Of a stretch of DNA of 13,203 nucleotides, positions 1,646 to 8,417 are shown one piece after another (the stretch's first letter is position 1; each line of letters opens with the position of its first letter). The notes beneath the pieces are model-generated. The model saw only the letters and a program-made list of their open reading frames with translations. It was not told the DNA's origin and made no database searches. The translations under genes were made by a program, and so were the position numbers. Origin of the DNA: Promethearchaeota archaeon (GTDB lineage Archaea > Asgardarchaeota > Lokiarchaeia > Sigyniarchaeales > SOKP01); NCBI GenBank assembly GCA_048938005.1, contig JBHLMQ010000071.1, positions 1 through 13,203 on the forward strand, written 5' to 3'.

Positions 1646-2827
1646 ATGTACGAAAGAATAATGAGTACAAAAATAAAAGCTATTACTTCCCCACCAAGTA
1701 AAGAAGAATTATCAAAACGTTTAGAAAGAGTAAGAGAGAAGATGAAAGAGCAGGATTTGGACTTTTATGTGTCGTTCGATCCTGTGAATATTTATTACCT
1801 AACCAATTTTGCTTTTTATATTCATGAACGACCTTTTATTTTAGTGATACCTATTGAAGGATTGCCACGGATGTTAATTCCACTTCTAGAAAGAGGACAT
1901 TTTGAAGAGAGAGTTCGATGTGAAATCGATACAATTACTTATTATGAATTTCCCGGAAGAGATGGGGAAAATTGGTATGATCGTTATAAAGAACTCATTG
2001 GGAAAGATAAGAAGATTGGTATAGAATCAAGAATGCCAATAGGGATAGTTAATAAAACACCTGGGACTCAAATCGTTACTGATATTATTGATGAAGTACG
2101 TATAATAAAAACAAAATATGAGAGAGGGAGAATTGTACATGCTTGTAAGGTTGCTAATAAGGGACATAGAATATTATTGAAAAAATGTCGTCCGAAAGTT
2201 CTCGAATTTGCTTTATATAAGGAGGTCAGCGATGCAATAATTTCCAAAATAGTGCAAGATATACCTAAAGCTAATTTTAAAGTAACAGAGGCAATAGGGA
2301 TAGTTTGGCCTCCATCAATATCGCATGATCCCCATTCAGTGCCACATATTTTTGCCGAAATGGAAGAAGGTGGACCACATGTCTCTATGATTCAAATACA
2401 AGTTGATGGTTATGGTGTAGAAATTGAAAGAACATTTTTTTTAGATAATATCCCTGAAAAAGCAAAAAAGCCATTTGAAATAATGCTCAATGCTAGGTCA
2501 TTAGCTTATGATTTATTAAAACCAGGGGTTATAATGAGTGAAATTGATAAAAAAGTACGGAGTTTTATCAATTCTCATGGTTATGGAGATTTTATACTTC
2601 ATAGGACAGGACATGGCTTTGGAATTACTGGTCATGAAGCACCTTTTCTAGCTGAGGGATATGATAGACCACTTAAAAAAAATATGGTTATTAGTGTTGA
2701 ACCTGGTATTTATTTACCTGGAATAGGTGGATTTCGTCATTCAGACACAGTACTCATCACTGAAGAAGGATATCAAAAACTGACAAGAGCACCTGAAACT
2801 CTAGAAGAGGTTACTATTCCGATTTAG
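1646..2827 (+). CDS. M24-family (Xaa-Pro peptidase/creatinase-like) hydrolase
   Basis: Creatinase_N-like start (RLERVREKMKEQDLD...NIYYLTNF) plus pita-bread domain motifs PH, ERT, HRTGHGFG..GHE.P, SVEPGIY, GFRHSDTVLIT. An alternative start is ATG at 1661. Confidence 0.9.
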   Translation: MYERIMSTKIKAITSPPSKEELSKRLERVREKMKEQDLDFYVSFDPVNIYYLTNFAFYIHERPFILVIPIEGLPRMLIPLLERGHFEERVRCEIDTITYYEFPGRDGENWYDRYKELIGKDKKIGIESRMPIGIVNKTPGTQIVTDIIDEVRIIKTKYERGRIVHACKVANKGHRILLKKCRPKVLEFALYKEVSDAIISKIVQDIPKANFKVTEAIGIVWPPSISHDPHSVPHIFAEMEEGGPHVSMIQIQVDGYGVEIERTFFLDNIPEKAKKPFEIMLNARSLAYDLLKPGVIMSEIDKKVRSFINSHGYGDFILHRTGHGFGITGHEAPFLAEGYDRPLKKNMVISVEPGIYLPGIGGFRHSDTVLITEEGYQKLTRAPETLEEVTIPI

Positions 2828-2839
2828 TGACCTATTTAT

Positions 2840-3346
2840 TCAATTTATATATTTCACTATTTTATTTAGCGATTTTCTGGAAGTAGGTTCAGGAATCTCT
2901 CCTTCAATATATCCGAAAGGCAAAATTGTTAAAATGTGGTCATTTTCTTCTAATCCAATTACTTGTTTCGCTTTTTCCCTGTTCATAGCACCAATCCAAC
3001 AAGTTCCAATCCCTAAAGACCAGGCCATTAACATCATATGCATTGAAACTAAGGATGTATCAATTATATACCACTTAGGACTTGTTTTAACTTTAGCAAC
3101 TATTGCTATAACCAGTGGAACTGTTTTTACAAATTCCCCATAAAATGCAGTTTTAGAGAGTTTATTCAATATTTCCTTGTTTTTTATAACAATAAACTCC
3201 CATGGTTGACGATTTGATGCACTAGGAGTCCACCTTCCTGCTTCTAAAATCATTTCAATTTCTTTTTCTGATATACTCTTATCTTGAAATGATCTTATAC
3301 TTCTTCTCCCTTTAAGAAATTTTAGAAAAACTTCTGGTTCGATCAT
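2840..3346 (-). CDS. Nitroreductase-family FMN-dependent oxidoreductase
   Basis: RRSIRSF, WTPSASNRQPWEF and LGIGTCWIG motifs; 168 aa; convergent with the M24 gene across a 12-bp gap. Confidence 0.93.
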   Translation of the reverse strand: MIEPEVFLKFLKGRRSIRSFQDKSISEKEIEMILEAGRWTPSASNRQPWEFIVIKNKEILNKLSKTAFYGEFVKTVPLVIAIVAKVKTSPKWYIIDTSLVSMHMMLMAWSLGIGTCWIGAMNREKAKQVIGLEENDHILTILPFGYIEGEIPEPTSRKSLNKIVKYIN

Positions 3347-3501
3347 TTTTATATTATTTTATTTTATATTACCAAAGATATTTAATTAAATATCAATGAA
3401 ATCGTAGATTAAATAATTAATAGTTATATTTTATTTAATTCCGAAATTAAGATAAACATTATACTATTCAATTAATTTCTAGCTAAGAATATCATAATTT
3501 A

Positions 3502-3832
3502 ATGCCTTTAACAGATTTAAAAGCCCAATATTCAAGAAAAGAGCTCAAGTATGGTCCAAGGAAAAAAGGATATAAATTAATGATAAAATGTTATGAATCT
3601 CATAGTCATGATCCTCATAATACTTTTCTATATGGCTTTCTTTGCTTAATATATGATGGAATAAACGCTATTACTAACATTAAGTCAAAAATGCGTCTTT
3701 TTTTTATTTCCTCTACTAGACAAGTTGTTGCGTTTTAAATGGCAAAATTTATTATGTATTTTATTCTTAGTTTTGTTTATATTAATAATTATATTTGCCC
3801 CTCAAATTAACTCTTGGTTTGCCAGTCTTTAA
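3502..3832 (+). pseudogene. Probable decayed small membrane protein gene
   Basis: The basic N-terminus of the 78-aa ORF (MPLTDLKAQYSRKELKYGPRKKGYKLMI) can be joined by a +1 shift near 3586-3592 to a frame reading MNLIVMILIILFYMAFFA*YMME*TLLLTLSQKCVFFLFPLLDKLLRFKWQNLLCILFLVLFILIIIFAPQINSWFASL*. That frame has TM-like segments, internal TAA at 3647 and 3662, and a final TAA at 3830-3832, 9 bp from the convergent stop. Confidence 0.4.
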
Positions 3833-3841
3833 TTGACTTGC

Positions 3842-5095
3842 TTATTTTTGATTGAAATAGTCTGATTCAAAATTGGGATATATTTTCTTTTTTCTTCCTT
3901 CTTTTTCAAATTTAATAAGTCCAAGGTCAACTAATTTATCTAAATGATATTGAATCGTCTTATGATCTACTTTAAATGTTTTAGTGATTAGATTATTCCA
4001 GATCCCTGGTTTTTGCTCAATCATCTCTAAAATCTCTAAAGTTAATTTACTCTTTTGCAACTTTAAATCTACGTTCGATATTGGATTTTTTTGATAATAG
4101 GGAAAATAAGCAATAAAATTTCCTATCCTTTTTTTTCCAATTACTTTATATGTAAGTAATATATCAAGATGCCAAACTAAATTCCCTGCTGCTAGTCCAG
4201 TTTTTCGTAATAATTCATTGAAATGAATTCCAGGTTCATCTAGAATTAAATCTATTATTTTATTACGATTCTCGTTTTCTAAAACTTCATCTAAGGATAA
4301 TCGATGAGCTCCTTTTTCAATTGATATCGTTCTTTTTCTAAGATATTGGAAATAATCTTTCTTTGAAATCAAGAATGCTAGGGATGCAACACCAAGAATT
4401 ATTATTACAATTATAGTTATTAACCAGGTCCAGTCGGCTAGAACCTCCTGTATTTCAAAAAGAGTTATGAAATATTCATTATCTTGTTGTAAATTTGTAA
4501 GGGTACTTTCTAAATATTTTTCAGAATTAGATTCATTGACAAACTCAATTGTATCAATTAATTCCCATGAATCTTGATTAGATTCAAATATGGCTAATGT
4601 AAATGAATTCTCTGGATTTAAACCATAATATTGAAGTTTTTTGTATCTAATAGTCAAATTTTCTATTGATGTATTCGATCTTATCTTATAAATACAGTTA
4701 TATCTATATTGAAATCGAAAATTGCCCCTTTGAGGTTGTCGTGGGGGTTGCATTACTCCAAAATTCTGTAGACTCGATTTAATGGATATATTTAATGAAA
4801 TTGGATTACTATTATTAATTATAAAAAAAGTTTGGCGATTTGCAATATTATTTTCATATTCTATGGAAAGATTGATTAAGGTATCAGTTGAAATTTCAAA
4901 AGTTATATTGTTCAAAAAATTATAAGTTACCCTCTCGTTTGGATTAATAGTATCTTGAGTTGAAAAACCAGGAATATCTTCTTTTCGAGCATTAATATTT
5001 ATTAATAATAGATTAAATTCAAGTAAAGTTATTAATATAAGTAGGATAACGGCAAATCTGTAGTTTTTCTTTTTAAATAAGTTAATACTAACCAA
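3842..5095 (-). CDS. Membrane-anchored transcriptional regulator: signal/TM, ectodomain, TM, tandem winged-HTH (ArsR-like, COG3398-type)
   Basis: TTG start. N-terminal basic then hydrophobic segment; beta-rich region with 7 N-x-S/T sequons; TM at about aa 222-243; two wHTH repeats (RNKIIDLILDEPGIHFNEL...WHLDIL and TLEILEMIEQKPGIWNNLI...YHLDKLVDLGLI) with no sequons. Confidence 0.85.
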   Translation of the reverse strand: MVSINLFKKKNYRFAVILLILITLLEFNLLLININARKEDIPGFSTQDTINPNERVTYNFLNNITFEISTDTLINLSIEYENNIANRQTFFIINNSNPISLNISIKSSLQNFGVMQPPRQPQRGNFRFQYRYNCIYKIRSNTSIENLTIRYKKLQYYGLNPENSFTLAIFESNQDSWELIDTIEFVNESNSEKYLESTLTNLQQDNEYFITLFEIQEVLADWTWLITIIVIIILGVASLAFLISKKDYFQYLRKRTISIEKGAHRLSLDEVLENENRNKIIDLILDEPGIHFNELLRKTGLAAGNLVWHLDILLTYKVIGKKRIGNFIAYFPYYQKNPISNVDLKLQKSKLTLEILEMIEQKPGIWNNLITKTFKVDHKTIQYHLDKLVDLGLIKFEKEGRKKKIYPNFESDYFNQK

Positions 5096-5135
5096 ATAAG
5101 TTCATTCCAATATCTTTAATTATTATAGATAAATT

Positions 5136-5146
5136 AAAAAAAAAAA
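5136..5146 (-). terminator. Oligo-T (T11) archaeal terminator-like tract between the surface protein gene and the regulator gene
   Basis: An A11 run on the plus strand begins 15 nt after the stop at 5161 in the minus-strand reading direction. Confidence 0.5.
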
Positions 5147-5160
5147 TTTTTTGAATGCTT

Positions 5161-5853
5161 TTACTTTCTTTTTTTGAGATAAAGCACTAAAAATATGGCA
5201 ATAACTCCTATGATTGTTCCGATGCTAACAGTAATCAAAAGTGTATTATCAGTTTCCGGGATTAAAATGGTCCAATAAGAGAAATGGTCAGTTTGAGCAA
5301 CTAAATATCCGTTTTCTATAGTAGTTGGTACTGTTACCCACTCTTCGGAATTTTCATCGTAATATGCCCAATTTCCATTGCGATTTTGATTATTTACCTG
5401 CATTTTAAGTTTTGCTTGACAGGAATCGTTGCATTGTATATAAGCGCAGAAACCTTCTTGATATTGAAAGCGATGTCGTTCTCTTATTTGATATGTATAT
5501 CCTTTAATTAAACCAAGTTGAATTTGCTCTTCTGTGCATATCATATTCATTGTTAGATTTCTCTCAGCTTCAATCTCAATTTCAAAATATTTTTCGCCAA
5601 TTTGTAATGCTTCACATTTAATATTCACATCTATATCAACAGTAGAATTCCATGTTAGACGAGTTCTTTGCCTAAATGTAAACATTACCCTATTATTTGC
5701 TTGTATTTGTGCTTGAATAGTATCTCCATTAACATTAATATCTGTTTCTCCAACAGCCAACACTGAATTTACGTTGAATATTGAAAATAAAATTGAGAAA
5801 GTAAAGATTGTGAGTGCAATTTTGTTAATTTTTTTCATTTTTTTTTTAAACAC
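5161..5853 (-). CDS. Single-pass cell-surface protein with juxtamembrane HFS motif (GPS/ZU5-like)
   Basis: Signal peptide (MKKINKIALTIFTFSILFSIFNVNSVLA); beta-rich ectodomain ending WAYYDENSEEWVTVPTTIENGYLVAQTDHFSYWTIL; TM at aa 205-226; KKRK tail. The true start may be ATG at 5838, with AGGTG (5851-5855) as ribosome-binding site. Confidence 0.85.
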   Translation of the reverse strand: MFKKKMKKINKIALTIFTFSILFSIFNVNSVLAVGETDINVNGDTIQAQIQANNRVMFTFRQRTRLTWNSTVDIDVNIKCEALQIGEKYFEIEIEAERNLTMNMICTEEQIQLGLIKGYTYQIRERHRFQYQEGFCAYIQCNDSCQAKLKMQVNNQNRNGNWAYYDENSEEWVTVPTTIENGYLVAQTDHFSYWTILIPETDNTLLITVSIGTIIGVIAIFLVLYLKKRK

Positions 5854-5884
5854 CTAAATTGGTCTAAGTAAATTAACGTGAATG

Positions 5885-5918
5885 ATATAAAAAGGATTGA
5901 GGAATAATTTTCCCCAAT
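5885..5918 (-). promoter_or_regulatory. TATA box with abutting imperfect palindrome (candidate operator) upstream of the surface protein gene
   Basis: Minus strand reads ATTGGGGAAAATTATTCCTCAAT-CC-TTTTTATAT. The palindrome at 5896-5918 has 9 of 11 complementary pairs; the TATA-like element at 5885-5893 lies about 30-45 nt upstream of the candidate starts. Confidence 0.5.
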
Positions 5919-6147
5919 TAATTTAGAATACCTTAATTGAATTTGGTTATTTTTTCAGACATTTTAGTCATAATTCAATTTGGAATTATTAAAGGTTTCA
6001 AATAAATTTAGTATAACAAATTCCCTTGAAGCTTAAGTTTTAATATTATAATTTTGAAAATATTATTATATAAATTCAAATTAAAATATTTATATAAAAC
6101 TCATCTTAAAATTAATTTAAGATAAAATATCGAATTTTATGTTATTT

Positions 6148-6161: not shown

Positions 6162-8417
6162 ATGTCATTAAAAGATTTTACAAAGGAAGTATTCACTCGA
6201 TATGGATTTACAGAGGATCATATCAATATTTATTTAGTCTATTTAAGAGTTCCTCGCGCAACACCTTCTGAAGTTTACATGACTTTAATAGATGAACATG
6301 AAACCCTACAGTATGAAACTGTATTAGAAATTACTAATTGGTTAGTTGAAAAAGGTTTCCTTAAGAGAATTGAAGGTATTGTCGATAGATATATTCCACT
6401 TCAGCCATATTTTGAATTATTTACAAGTGAATCAGAGAATTTTAGAAATGAAATTGCCAAAATTAAAGATACAATATTAGCCGATCAGTCTGACCGCTTT
6501 GAAAAACTCGAAGCGATACAAGATAAAAGCATAAAAGAAGTAGAAAAAGCTGTTGATACCCAAATCAAAGCCTTTTTTGAAGATTCTGATTCAAAAAATA
6601 ACACCAAAAAAAATCGGATAGATAGTGCAACTAATCGGTTTACTGAGACCAGCAAAGCTTTAGAAAGTAATATTCATTCCATCATGGACACTTTAAATTC
6701 GAATTTAAAAAATATCTCAGACACAAGCGTTAATAGAAATGAATCTGAAATTACCAAAACTAAAGAGAATCTAACAACCTTAATTTCGAATTTATTAAAT
6801 GATTTTTCAACAAGAGTTGAAAATTTAGACAAAGAATTGAAAATGGAACTTGATGAGCATGTAGAAAGACATAAAAATATCGCAAACCAGCTTAAACCTA
6901 AAATGGAACAAATTCTGGAGAAGTATTTGGAACGTATGGATAAAGTTGTTACCGATTTAAAAGCAAAAATTTCCAATTTATTAAATGAACATTCGAATCA
7001 TATAAAGAACACCACAGATACTCTCCAAGTGAACTTAAAAGCTATGGTTGATGAAAGACATAGAACATTAACCAACCAGACCAATGATTTTAAAAGTATG
7101 ACACTGACTTTAATTGAGAATTTGCTTGAACATGCAAACAGATTTACTGATTTTTCAGAAGATATGGCTAAAAAAGGATTTTTCTGGATGGGAAAAAAGA
7201 AAAAATATAAAGCGAGACACGAAACTACAATTCAGAATATATTGAAATACACAGAACCAATGAAACCTGATTTCACCAAAACCTGCGATGATTATGTCGT
7301 GGATACTCGAGAAACCACAGAACACATTAAATCTGATGTTACTGATATTATGGTAAAAGAAAATGATGGATTAGGTGCGGAAACTAACGATCTTGATTAC
7401 AAAGCTAAAGAAACAATTGAAGCTCAATTAGAGACTTTAGCAACTGATTTAGCTGGAGAAGTTGATGATACTTTACAAAATGGTGTAAAAGATTGTTCTG
7501 ATACCAGAATAAAATTAAAGGATTCTCTAGAAAGTTCACTTAAACAACATCATAGACAATATGATGATGCAATAAATAATCATAAAGAAAATTCATTAAA
7601 ACATTATACCGATTTTGATGTTGAAATTAAACGAATAAATGCTGATTGGACCAGAGATGTTAATACTAATTTCGAAGATGGGAAAAGAGATTGTTCAGAT
7701 AAAATTGATAGTGAAATTAGATTATGGGATGCTGAAGCAAAAGATATGAATACTAATTTAACCAATATGCTCACAGATCATAAGTCTAAATATGAACAAA
7801 ACGCAAAAACTCTCCAAAATAGTTTGTCAAATACCACAAGAGACACCGCTCAAAATATTAAAGATAATATCGCTGATTTTACTCTACAATTTATGAATTC
7901 CATCGATGATGCCACTGAACTAGCTGAAAATAACGAAAGCAAGCTAATGGACATTTTTAACGCTTCTGGTTCAATTCCAGAAATATCTAAGGTGACAACT
8001 TGGCCGGTAGTCGGAAAAGATGCGATGGTTGCCGCTATAAAAGATGCAATTTATCGTGTAAAATCTTCAATCATTATTGTTACTCCATACGTAGTCCCGG
8101 ATATACTACAAGTTGTTTCTGAATACGCCTTTCAGAAAAAAGCTGTCAGATTTATGTTGACTAGTAGATGGGAACTTGACCAATATAGTGGGATAATTTC
8201 AAAGATGAAACAACTTGGAAACATTCAATTCCGGCAATTACAAACTGCAGGTGAATTTTTCGCAGTTACTCGGGATGCTGAAGAAGTCATTCTTGCACCT
8301 GCCACAGAAAAAGAAGCAGAAATGATTGCAGTTGTTTCAAATCAAGAAGGGTATTCTAAACTCTATTCCCAATTCATTGGACCAATATTCCAAGCGAATT
8401 CCCGCCCTATAAAGTAA
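6162..8417 (+). CDS. TrmB-like protein: N-terminal wHTH, about 520-aa hendecad-repeat helical region, C-terminal PLD-like/TrmB effector-type domain
   Basis: aa 1-82 match the TrmB wHTH pattern (YGFTEDHINIYLVYL..PRATPSEV...WLVEKGFLKRIEGIVDRYIPLQP). aa 83-602 are helical with 11/22 periodicity. aa ~612-751 match the TrmB/PLD-like pattern (WPVVGKDAMVAAIKDAIYRVKSSIIIVTPY...FFAVTRDAEEVILAP) without an HKD motif. Confidence 0.75.
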   Translation: MSLKDFTKEVFTRYGFTEDHINIYLVYLRVPRATPSEVYMTLIDEHETLQYETVLEITNWLVEKGFLKRIEGIVDRYIPLQPYFELFTSESENFRNEIAKIKDTILADQSDRFEKLEAIQDKSIKEVEKAVDTQIKAFFEDSDSKNNTKKNRIDSATNRFTETSKALESNIHSIMDTLNSNLKNISDTSVNRNESEITKTKENLTTLISNLLNDFSTRVENLDKELKMELDEHVERHKNIANQLKPKMEQILEKYLERMDKVVTDLKAKISNLLNEHSNHIKNTTDTLQVNLKAMVDERHRTLTNQTNDFKSMTLTLIENLLEHANRFTDFSEDMAKKGFFWMGKKKKYKARHETTIQNILKYTEPMKPDFTKTCDDYVVDTRETTEHIKSDVTDIMVKENDGLGAETNDLDYKAKETIEAQLETLATDLAGEVDDTLQNGVKDCSDTRIKLKDSLESSLKQHHRQYDDAINNHKENSLKHYTDFDVEIKRINADWTRDVNTNFEDGKRDCSDKIDSEIRLWDAEAKDMNTNLTNMLTDHKSKYEQNAKTLQNSLSNTTRDTAQNIKDNIADFTLQFMNSIDDATELAENNESKLMDIFNASGSIPEISKVTTWPVVGKDAMVAAIKDAIYRVKSSIIIVTPYVVPDILQVVSEYAFQKKAVRFMLTSRWELDQYSGIISKMKQLGNIQFRQLQTAGEFFAVTRDAEEVILAPATEKEAEMIAVVSNQEGYSKLYSQFIGPIFQANSRPIK
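6771..7100 (+). repeat. Protein-level 22-residue (2x11) amphipathic repeats within the 751-aa gene
   Basis: Consecutive 22-mers LTTLISNLLNDFSTRVENLDKE / LKMELDEHVERHKNIANQLKPK / MEQILEKYLERMDKVVTDLKAK / ISNLLNEHSNHIKNTTDTLQVN / LKAMVDERHRTLTNQTNDFKSM, mostly hydrophobic at positions 1, 5, 12, 15/16 and 19. Confidence 0.65.

Follow-up and report, generated by a model that had tools for sequence, protein, structure and literature searches.

Two adjacent genes on the reverse strand of contig JBHLMQ010000071.1 from a Promethearchaeota archaeon (assembly GCA_048938005.1), here called A and B, encode single-pass membrane proteins whose ectodomains are paralogous. Protein A carries a His-Phe-Ser (HFS) motif, a candidate autoproteolytic site, shortly before its membrane anchor, and ends in a KKRK tail. 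Protein B has lost this motif and continues through the membrane into two cytoplasmic winged helix-turn-helix (wHTH) domains. The stretch analysed, referred to throughout as the window, comprises 13,203 nucleotides (nt), is AT-rich (GC 26–38%) and belongs to a genome of 3.72 Mb in 101 contigs with a completeness of 95%. Together, A and B may constitute a two-gene transmembrane signalling module in one order of Asgard (Lokiarchaeia-type) archaea, a reading for which we consider the case evenly balanced. It draws on the paralogy of the ectodomains, on the contrast in their motifs, and on natural fusions and related gene pairs in which an HFS ectodomain is joined to the same kind of output.

Paralogous ectodomains with different cytoplasmic parts

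The ectodomains of A and B are true paralogs, as confirmed at the level of sequence, profile and predicted structure. In the earlier note on this DNA, residues 46–142 of A had been aligned by hand with residues 46–141 of B (20 identities in 97 columns); the recalculated alignment reproduces this result, finding 21 identities over 98 columns, with the segment RFQY common to both. Smith-Waterman comparison of the ectodomains alone gave a score of 73, against 33.2 ± 5.5 for shuffled sequences, with none of 1000 shuffles scoring as high, and BLASTP of A against B returned an E-value of 0.011 over 217 columns. Family profiles were then compared by hhalign, using 118 sequences for A and 111 for B. 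Restricted to the ectodomains, these profiles aligned with a probability of 82.5 and E 9.8e-6 (score 40.3, 139 columns), far above the controls, which scored 16.5 for a reversed profile, at most 18.8 for 60 column shuffles and at most 19.1 for 40 block shuffles. With full-length profiles, the probability rose to 96.6 and the E-value improved to 5.4e-10 over 207 columns, an alignment in which the hydrophobic segments are included. Furthermore, the hidden Markov model of the A family, searched against a library of 1.84 billion representative proteins, found only 185 proteins at E <= 1e-3 and matched B-type proteins with E-values of 1.6e-7 and 5.9e-6. Applied to other genomes, the same model also detects the adjoining B gene, with E-values between 1e-8 and 1e-11 in each.

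Structure prediction leads to the same relationship. The AlphaFold models of A and B, obtained from non-overlapping input alignments and with a pLDDT of ~93–95 in both ectodomains, have an identical strand order, and of the 164 ectodomain positions aligned, 134 have equal DSSP secondary-structure states (82%), compared with 34–54% in shifted alignments. In addition, an insertion of ~30 residues is common to A and B, and canonical HFS domains are without it. This common insertion suggests that A and B are each other's closest relatives and fits a duplication within the lineage. The relatedness of the two ectodomains is thus borne out, and the origin by duplication that had been suggested for the pair is supported.

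Gene A lies at 5161–5853; like every feature of A, B, their spacer and their promoter given below, it is on the minus strand. Its open reading frame specifies 230 amino acids (aa) from a GTG codon and comprises a signal peptide, an HFS-type β-sandwich, a C-terminal transmembrane (TM) segment and the KKRK tail. The likely start is the ATG at 5838, which would yield 225 aa, as in the identical database protein. All 262 homologs of A are unannotated Asgard proteins. The AlphaFold2 model has a pLDDT of 85 overall and of ~93–95 in the ectodomain. At the N-terminus, a hydrophobic, signal-like helix was recognised by reading sequence and model. The ectodomain, delimited by hhalign and the model, spans aa 34–202 (~169 aa; 5248–5754) and is a single HFS domain. 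Its candidate autoproteolytic site, H190-F191-S192 (5278–5286), was located from motif counts across the family and from the strands of the model. The TM anchor follows at aa 203–226 (5176–5247; helix 203–229 in the model), and the sequence closes with KKRK (5164–5175).

Gene B (3842–5095) encodes 417 aa from a TTG start and has 264 homologs; its AlphaFold2 model has a pLDDT of 80.5. An N-terminal hydrophobic helix precedes a β-rich pseudo-HFS ectodomain, paralogous to that of A by profile and model comparison, at aa 34–221 (~188 aa; 4433–4996). The TM helix at aa 222–244 (4364–4432; helix 223–253 in the model) has a basic cytoplasmic flank and leads to the tandem wHTH. The first of these domains, at aa 274–332 (4100–4276), matches PF24266 (HTH_HVO_0163_N) with a Pfam E-value of 2.4e-17. 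The second, at aa 350–407 (3875–4048), is of the PF13412/ArsR/MarR type (Pfam E 1.2e-10, supported by elements of the model). Mean identity to the window copy of B is 87% in the cytoplasmic part versus 64% in the ectodomain, and a Foldseek search of the PDB with the full B model returned winged-helix matches only, the cytoplasmic part dominating. By its predicted domain content, B is a transmembrane transcription regulator, with DNA-binding domains and a TM helix in one protein. Sequence and Pfam matches agree with the division of features drawn in the earlier note, namely HFS and KKRK in A, and two cytoplasmic wHTH domains without HFS in B.

The same genome holds one more protein with a TM segment and tandem wHTH, of 233 aa and without a large ectodomain, which adjoins small multi-TM proteins (G000:C7:12427-13029; L008:1943-2644, -).

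Gene linkage, fusions and promoter signals

Linkage of the two genes was surveyed in a phylum-wide sample of 201 genomes. Full-length A was found at 41 loci in 40 genomes, all within two families of one order, and at 40 of the 41 loci B follows directly on the same strand, G165:C17 being the exception. In a set of 80 metagenome loci, retrieved by querying with a fused relative and neither independent nor de-duplicated, A is present in 62 of the 62 loci with room upstream of B; a further 17 B loci start at most 378 nt from the end of their contig, and the last locus encodes a fusion. The synteny of A and B in related genomes, which the original proposal required, is therefore well documented.

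Several observations nevertheless weigh against a joint module. The whole neighbourhood is syntenic, with a nitroreductase gene downstream in 30 of 38 loci and a TrmB-like gene upstream in 19 of 25; since the flanking genes are conserved as well, adjacency of A and B alone is weak evidence. A-type paralogs occur standing alone (G165:C17 and Cys-rich variants), and there are eight second B-type copies without A. In three other families, HFS proteins are found without a wHTH neighbour detectable by the profile of the cytoplasmic part of B. Moreover, the spacer between A and B (5096–5160) contains a run of 11 T (5136–5146) followed by AT-rich sequence. The 55 unique A–B spacers measure 52–90 nt, apart from one of 290, and in those printed for inspection T-runs of ~8–13 were noted by eye, untallied. 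Such a run suggests an archaeal terminator-like signal and partly separate transcription of the two genes. The equally syntenic flanks, the unpaired paralogs of either gene and the T-run would all fit a tandem duplicate whose copies have independent jobs, A as a plain surface or adhesion protein and B as a sensor of its own ligand, held side by side by conserved gene order.

What argues against such independence is that A-type ectodomains are found fused to the output part of B in the same genomic slot. These fusions, of 384–407 aa, consist of a signal peptide, an A-type HFS ectodomain, a TM segment and the tandem wHTH of B. They form four clusters at 90% identity from two data sources, are 81–86% identical to each other, and have an ordinary A as their closest unfused relative (84% identity). 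On the one contig read, the next gene downstream of the fusion is the nitroreductase gene also found after B in the window, which indicates that the fusion replaced the A–B pair in place. A distant representative of 481 aa (P0310) likewise joins an HFS ectodomain to a TM segment and two wHTH domains. A second line of evidence comes from a different Asgard family, f22, in which an HFS protein also accompanies a related regulator. Here, a ~500-aa protein with a TM segment and two wHTH domains is encoded directly upstream of a 360-aa, TM-anchored protein with two HFS domains, in six of six genomes with a match. The f22 regulator has a homologous tandem wHTH joined to an unrelated ectodomain, and the gene order is reversed relative to A–B. 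Fusions and reverse-order pairs together uphold the coupling of a surface ectodomain to wHTH output that had been proposed from the window, and support, as far as gene architecture can indicate, a functional coupling of the HFS ectodomain to the TM-wHTH output. Independent jobs for A and B are for these reasons an unlikely explanation.

The second B copies provide a further comparison. At five of the eight loci (L110–L114, e.g. L110:3461-4033, -), the position of A is taken by an unrelated but conserved, N-terminally anchored exported protein of ~190 aa. With this other small partner beside B, the layout of a small exported partner plus a regulator seems to be general. The ~190-aa proteins were also considered as diverged copies of A; this was ruled out, as they are unrelated to A, B and the canonical HFS domains (hhalign probability <= 14.5). 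Also in favour of the joint reading, the genome has no HFS-domain gene other than A.

Upstream of A, a conserved promoter block of 35 nt (5885–5919) comprises a TATA box and an upstream element. It lies ~63 nt before the ATG of A and keeps this spacing in each of the 45 unique upstream regions compared, although the proteins are only ~55–65% identical. The exact 21-nt core of the block occurs once in the genome, at A itself; allowing two mismatches gave five matches in the same genome, equal to the five obtained with a reversed-pattern control. The block is a candidate operator, on which either B or the product of the divergent TrmB-like gene may act. Among the 55 unique loci, B starts with TTG in 26, with ATG in 26 and with GTG in three, and the frequent TTG start, taken with the preceding T-run, suggests abundant A and scarce, attenuated B.

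A highly conserved block that is unique in the genome, and expression signals suggesting low B and high A, would suit a regulator and its target. In that arrangement B would sense the envelope state alone and control transcription of A, and the common fold would allow B to sense material resembling A, such as shed fragments of A serving as ligand, with no fixed heterodimer. The divergent TrmB-like gene is, however, an equally good candidate for the operator, and the fusions favour direct coupling in cis. We therefore regard a pure regulator–target relationship as improbable, and retain the signalling module formed by A and B as the preferred reading.

The divergent gene (6162–8417, plus strand) encodes 751 aa with a weak TrmB/penicillinase-repressor-like wHTH at the N-terminus and a long coiled-coil middle. 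It adjoins A in 27 of the 80 metagenome loci, or in 19 of the 25 with enough flank. At one metagenome locus (L048:1842-2321, +), a shortened A without the HFS region is separated from B by a gap of 290 nt and may represent a decayed A.

The HFS domain of A and its degenerate copy in B

The ectodomain of A is probably a MAIN/GAIN_B-like domain. MAIN (Microbial Autoproteolysis INducing) domains are described as GAIN_B-like β-sandwiches of bacteria and archaea that carry an HX(S/T) motif, mostly HFS, in a β-turn before the last strand, and undergo autoproteolysis between F and S, the fragments remaining associated. They are located after a signal peptide and directly before a surface anchor, either sortase-type or SLH, and large adhesion or enzyme cargo is typical (Brogan & Rudner, bioRxiv 2026, doi 10.64898/2026.05.12.724683). 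In A, the HX(S/T) motif, its position in the β-turn of the last strand, a preceding signal segment and an anchor directly behind are all present. In the model of A, the HFS lies in the turn between strands 183–188 and 193–199, and the last strand runs into the TM anchor.

Profile comparison provides a possible link from A to this class. The A ectodomain profile aligned by hhalign, along its entire length, with 41 canonical archaeal HFS domains at a probability of 99.3 and E 3.5e-20 over 126 columns; these 41 domains had been cut around HF(S/T), so that the set is selected on the motif. The gap in this alignment falls opposite residues ~80–106 of A, an insertion flanked by the invariant Cys80 and Cys106, and B has the same insertion without the cysteines. 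The canonical archaeal domains aligned in turn with HF(S/T) repeats of two bacterial proteins (P0358/P0389; probability 95.6, E 1.1e-8, 120 columns), and in one of the two these repeats directly precede three SLH anchoring domains. Furthermore, the C-terminal half of A matches a repeat that recurs in further Asgard families and, at a weak level, in bacterial proteins. Within the A family, HFS is present in 106 of 118 members, and both F and S in 118 of 118.

The GAIN or ZU5 fold considered in the earlier note is the best lead. In a Foldseek search of the PDB with the model of A, the top row was an entry for the adhesion G-protein-coupled receptor (aGPCR) CD97, a weak match at E 0.074 and TM-score 0.21, and several ankyrin ZU5 structures stood among the first 30 rows, likewise weak with probabilities of up to 0.77. 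Significance was not reached, as no row of this search had E <= 1e-3. In Pfam, the ZU5, GAIN and GPS models gave no match to A, and ZU5 (PF00791) gave none at E <= 1 for A or any of 75 family members; one ZU5 match, below threshold (17.1 bits versus a cut-off of 21), fell on a distant bacterial relative. No Pfam family was assigned to A, the 75 family members, the canonical domains or the distant relatives, and DUF5803 was matched weakly in 25 of the 75 members (best E 0.0013). A PDB sequence search with the canonical-domain profile yielded nothing below E 0.2, and the ESM Atlas, queried with the A ectodomain, returned only the unnamed Asgard clusters of A itself. The PDB sequence search with the A-family profile yielded only a 23-residue match of aa 121–143 of A (window ~5425–5493, -) to a conserved segment of the picornavirus capsid protein VP2, at E ~0.03, which was set aside as probably due to chance.

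The missing Foldseek significance and the silence of the ZU5, GAIN and GPS models are the first of several points that count against placing A among MAIN domains and the pair among cleavage-based systems. The apparent link from A to studied MAIN domains is a chain of homology via unnamed proteins. Compared directly with the canonical HFS domains, the B ectodomain reached only E 0.007 and a probability of 5.5 in hhalign, so that B is linked to them via A only. The ectodomain of A consists of the HFS domain alone, whereas MAIN proteins typically carry large adhesion or enzyme cargo, and the His of the motif is replaced in 12 of the 118 family members.

In B, the motif is lost altogether. In the hhalign mapping, the invariant Y208 of B stands opposite H190 of A, and I210 opposite S192, which defines a degenerate site at aa 206–210 (4466–4480), and an HxS/T motif occurs within aa 150–222 in none of the 111 B-family members. 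This contrast bears on whether the HFS of A is structural instead of catalytic. An uncleaved β-sandwich anchor that takes part in no shedding-based signalling would suit the replaced His, the want of cargo to release and the lack of a significant GAIN or ZU5 fold match, but it sits poorly with an invariant F and S and an H kept in 90% of members, with a position and context identical to those of domains with demonstrated HF|S cleavage, and with the strict loss of the motif (0 of 111) in the paralog bearing the output domain, and we accord it little probability.

Several variants of the domain were encountered in the survey. In A-family paralogs located away from B, the two halves of the HFS domain are separated by a long Cys-rich insertion in which a C-x-C-type unit is repeated (L006:1899-2783 (+), L007:1897-3105 (-), P0247). 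Other TM-anchored proteins contain two or three complete HFS domains in tandem, each keeping HFS (P0243, P0248, P0313, P0440; L003:1281-2846 (-); L098:762-2393 (+)), and a CARDB protein with an SFSEW motif adjoins the protein with three HFS domains (L003 15-1226, L098 2455-3684). In another Asgard family, the gene for a 290-aa multi-TM protein with an N-terminal wHTH immediately precedes that for a surface protein of 559 aa, in whose C-terminal domain HTS replaces HFS (L012:3747-4619 and 1881-3557, -).

Proposed mechanism and comparison with known systems

Starting from the observed homology, motif pattern, architecture, synteny and fusions, we infer a scheme for cleavage, A–B contact, stimulus, output mode and targets. 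A would probably cleave itself between F191 and S192, as predicted from its motif. The outer fragment of ~158 residues would then stay non-covalently on a stub of 39 residues formed by the last strand, the TM helix and KKRK. B would keep the fold in an uncleavable form (H to Y, S to I) and connect it by one TM helix to the two cytoplasmic wHTH domains. The trigger could be loss or a ligand-induced change of the outer fragment of A, through force, ligand or turnover, and B may read the state of A via contacts between ectodomains or TM segments. A complex prediction of the two ectodomains gave a score of 0.00, which counts neither for nor against binding. The output of B might change through regulated proteolysis releasing the two wHTH domains, or through altered oligomerisation while B stays membrane-bound, and a candidate target is the conserved promoter of A itself. 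In the fused relatives, a version in cis can be envisaged, in which loss of the outer fragment exposes the stub and licenses intramembrane proteolysis, comparable to SEAL-domain RsgI and to Notch. Several M50 site-2 proteases are encoded in the genome, and likewise in all 14 control genomes, so that their presence is generic.

Taken to its full extent, this scheme would amount to an archaeal form of mechanotransduction in the style of aGPCR and Notch receptors, in which HF|S self-cleavage is followed by force- or ligand-dependent shedding and the stub, fused or acting via B, licenses release of the wHTH by intramembrane proteolysis. We consider this extended version tentative and rather doubtful. 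If it were true, A would be the first GAIN-like domain with intracellular output outside eukaryotes, and the system would directly answer a question left by the MAIN preprint, namely whether the fragment that stays tethered to the cell has a signalling role. More generally, if cleavage and coupling hold, the pair would offer a simple prokaryotic model in which the gating of transcription by force or shedding can be tested and, being present in Asgard archaea, would bear on the age of adhesion-GPCR and Notch signalling logic. The conserved pair of a cleavable and a non-cleavable paralog supplies a built-in contrast, and both proteins are small (225 and 417 aa) and amenable to ordinary bench work.

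Among known systems, aGPCR GAIN domains and Notch-type receptors have a cleaved juxtamembrane domain, a membrane-tethered last strand and force-dependent shedding, and the Notch output is a released transcription regulator. In contrast, the archaeal module is without a 7TM domain and without EGF or LNR modules. The likeness lies in the proposed mechanism, not in family membership, the Foldseek match to the CD97 entry having an E-value of 0.074.

ToxR/ToxS and TcpP/TcpH each consist of a DNA-binding protein that is tethered to the membrane and has a domain outside the cytoplasm, and of a small partner, membrane-bound or exported, specified by the adjacent gene. A and B resemble them in that a membrane regulator gene stands beside a small membrane partner gene. 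In ToxR, the wHTH is N-terminal and of the OmpR type, and the partner is not a paralog. B differs on each count, as its wHTH pair is ArsR/MarR-like and, as the Pfam matches verify for the contrast made in the earlier note, C-terminal, and its partner is a paralog with an autoproteolysis-type motif. Transmembrane transcription regulators, the class to which B belongs by its domains, are a known class acting from the membrane (Demey et al. 2023, PMC10269533).

A further parallel is found in the SEAL-domain RsgI/SigI systems. RsgI is reported to have a juxtamembrane autoproteolytic domain whose fragments stay associated, and their separation is proposed to license intramembrane proteolysis, releasing a cytoplasmic transcription component (Brogan et al. 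2023, bioRxiv 10.1101/2023.06.27.546760). RsgI differs from A–B in its SEA-like fold, its N-terminal cytoplasmic part and its anti-sigma output, as opposed to a DNA-binding wHTH. Moreover, RsgI is a single protein, whereas A and B form a pair of a predicted cleavable protein and its dead paralog.

The closest comparison remains that with MAIN domains, which A matches in motif position, in the signal segment in front and in the anchor immediately behind. A differs from them in having no cargo and in its anchor, a TM helix compared with sortase or SLH anchoring, and its membership is indicated by the homology chain and the motif, not by a significant fold match. The authors of the MAIN preprint say explicitly that no signalling is known for the retained fragment (doi 10.64898/2026.05.12.724683). 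In the Asgard loci, by contrast, a regulator with a TM segment and tandem wHTH accompanies the domain or is joined to it in one protein, and B is, by its motif, a catalytically dead copy. A literature search that did not extend to supplementary tables found no relevant work on Asgard archaea with a GAIN domain or autoproteolysis. For HVO_0163, it yielded an unrelated proteomics study only. The earlier note knew of no characterised example; as regards the components this no longer stands, since the domain class of A (in the 2026 preprint) and the class of transmembrane transcription regulators had already been described. The wiring of a MAIN-like domain to an intracellular output, in contrast, is not described in the literature searched. 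In the A–B locus, in the fusions related to it and in the f22 pairs, such a domain is naturally wired to a DNA-binding output tethered to the membrane, and it is this pairing that is new.

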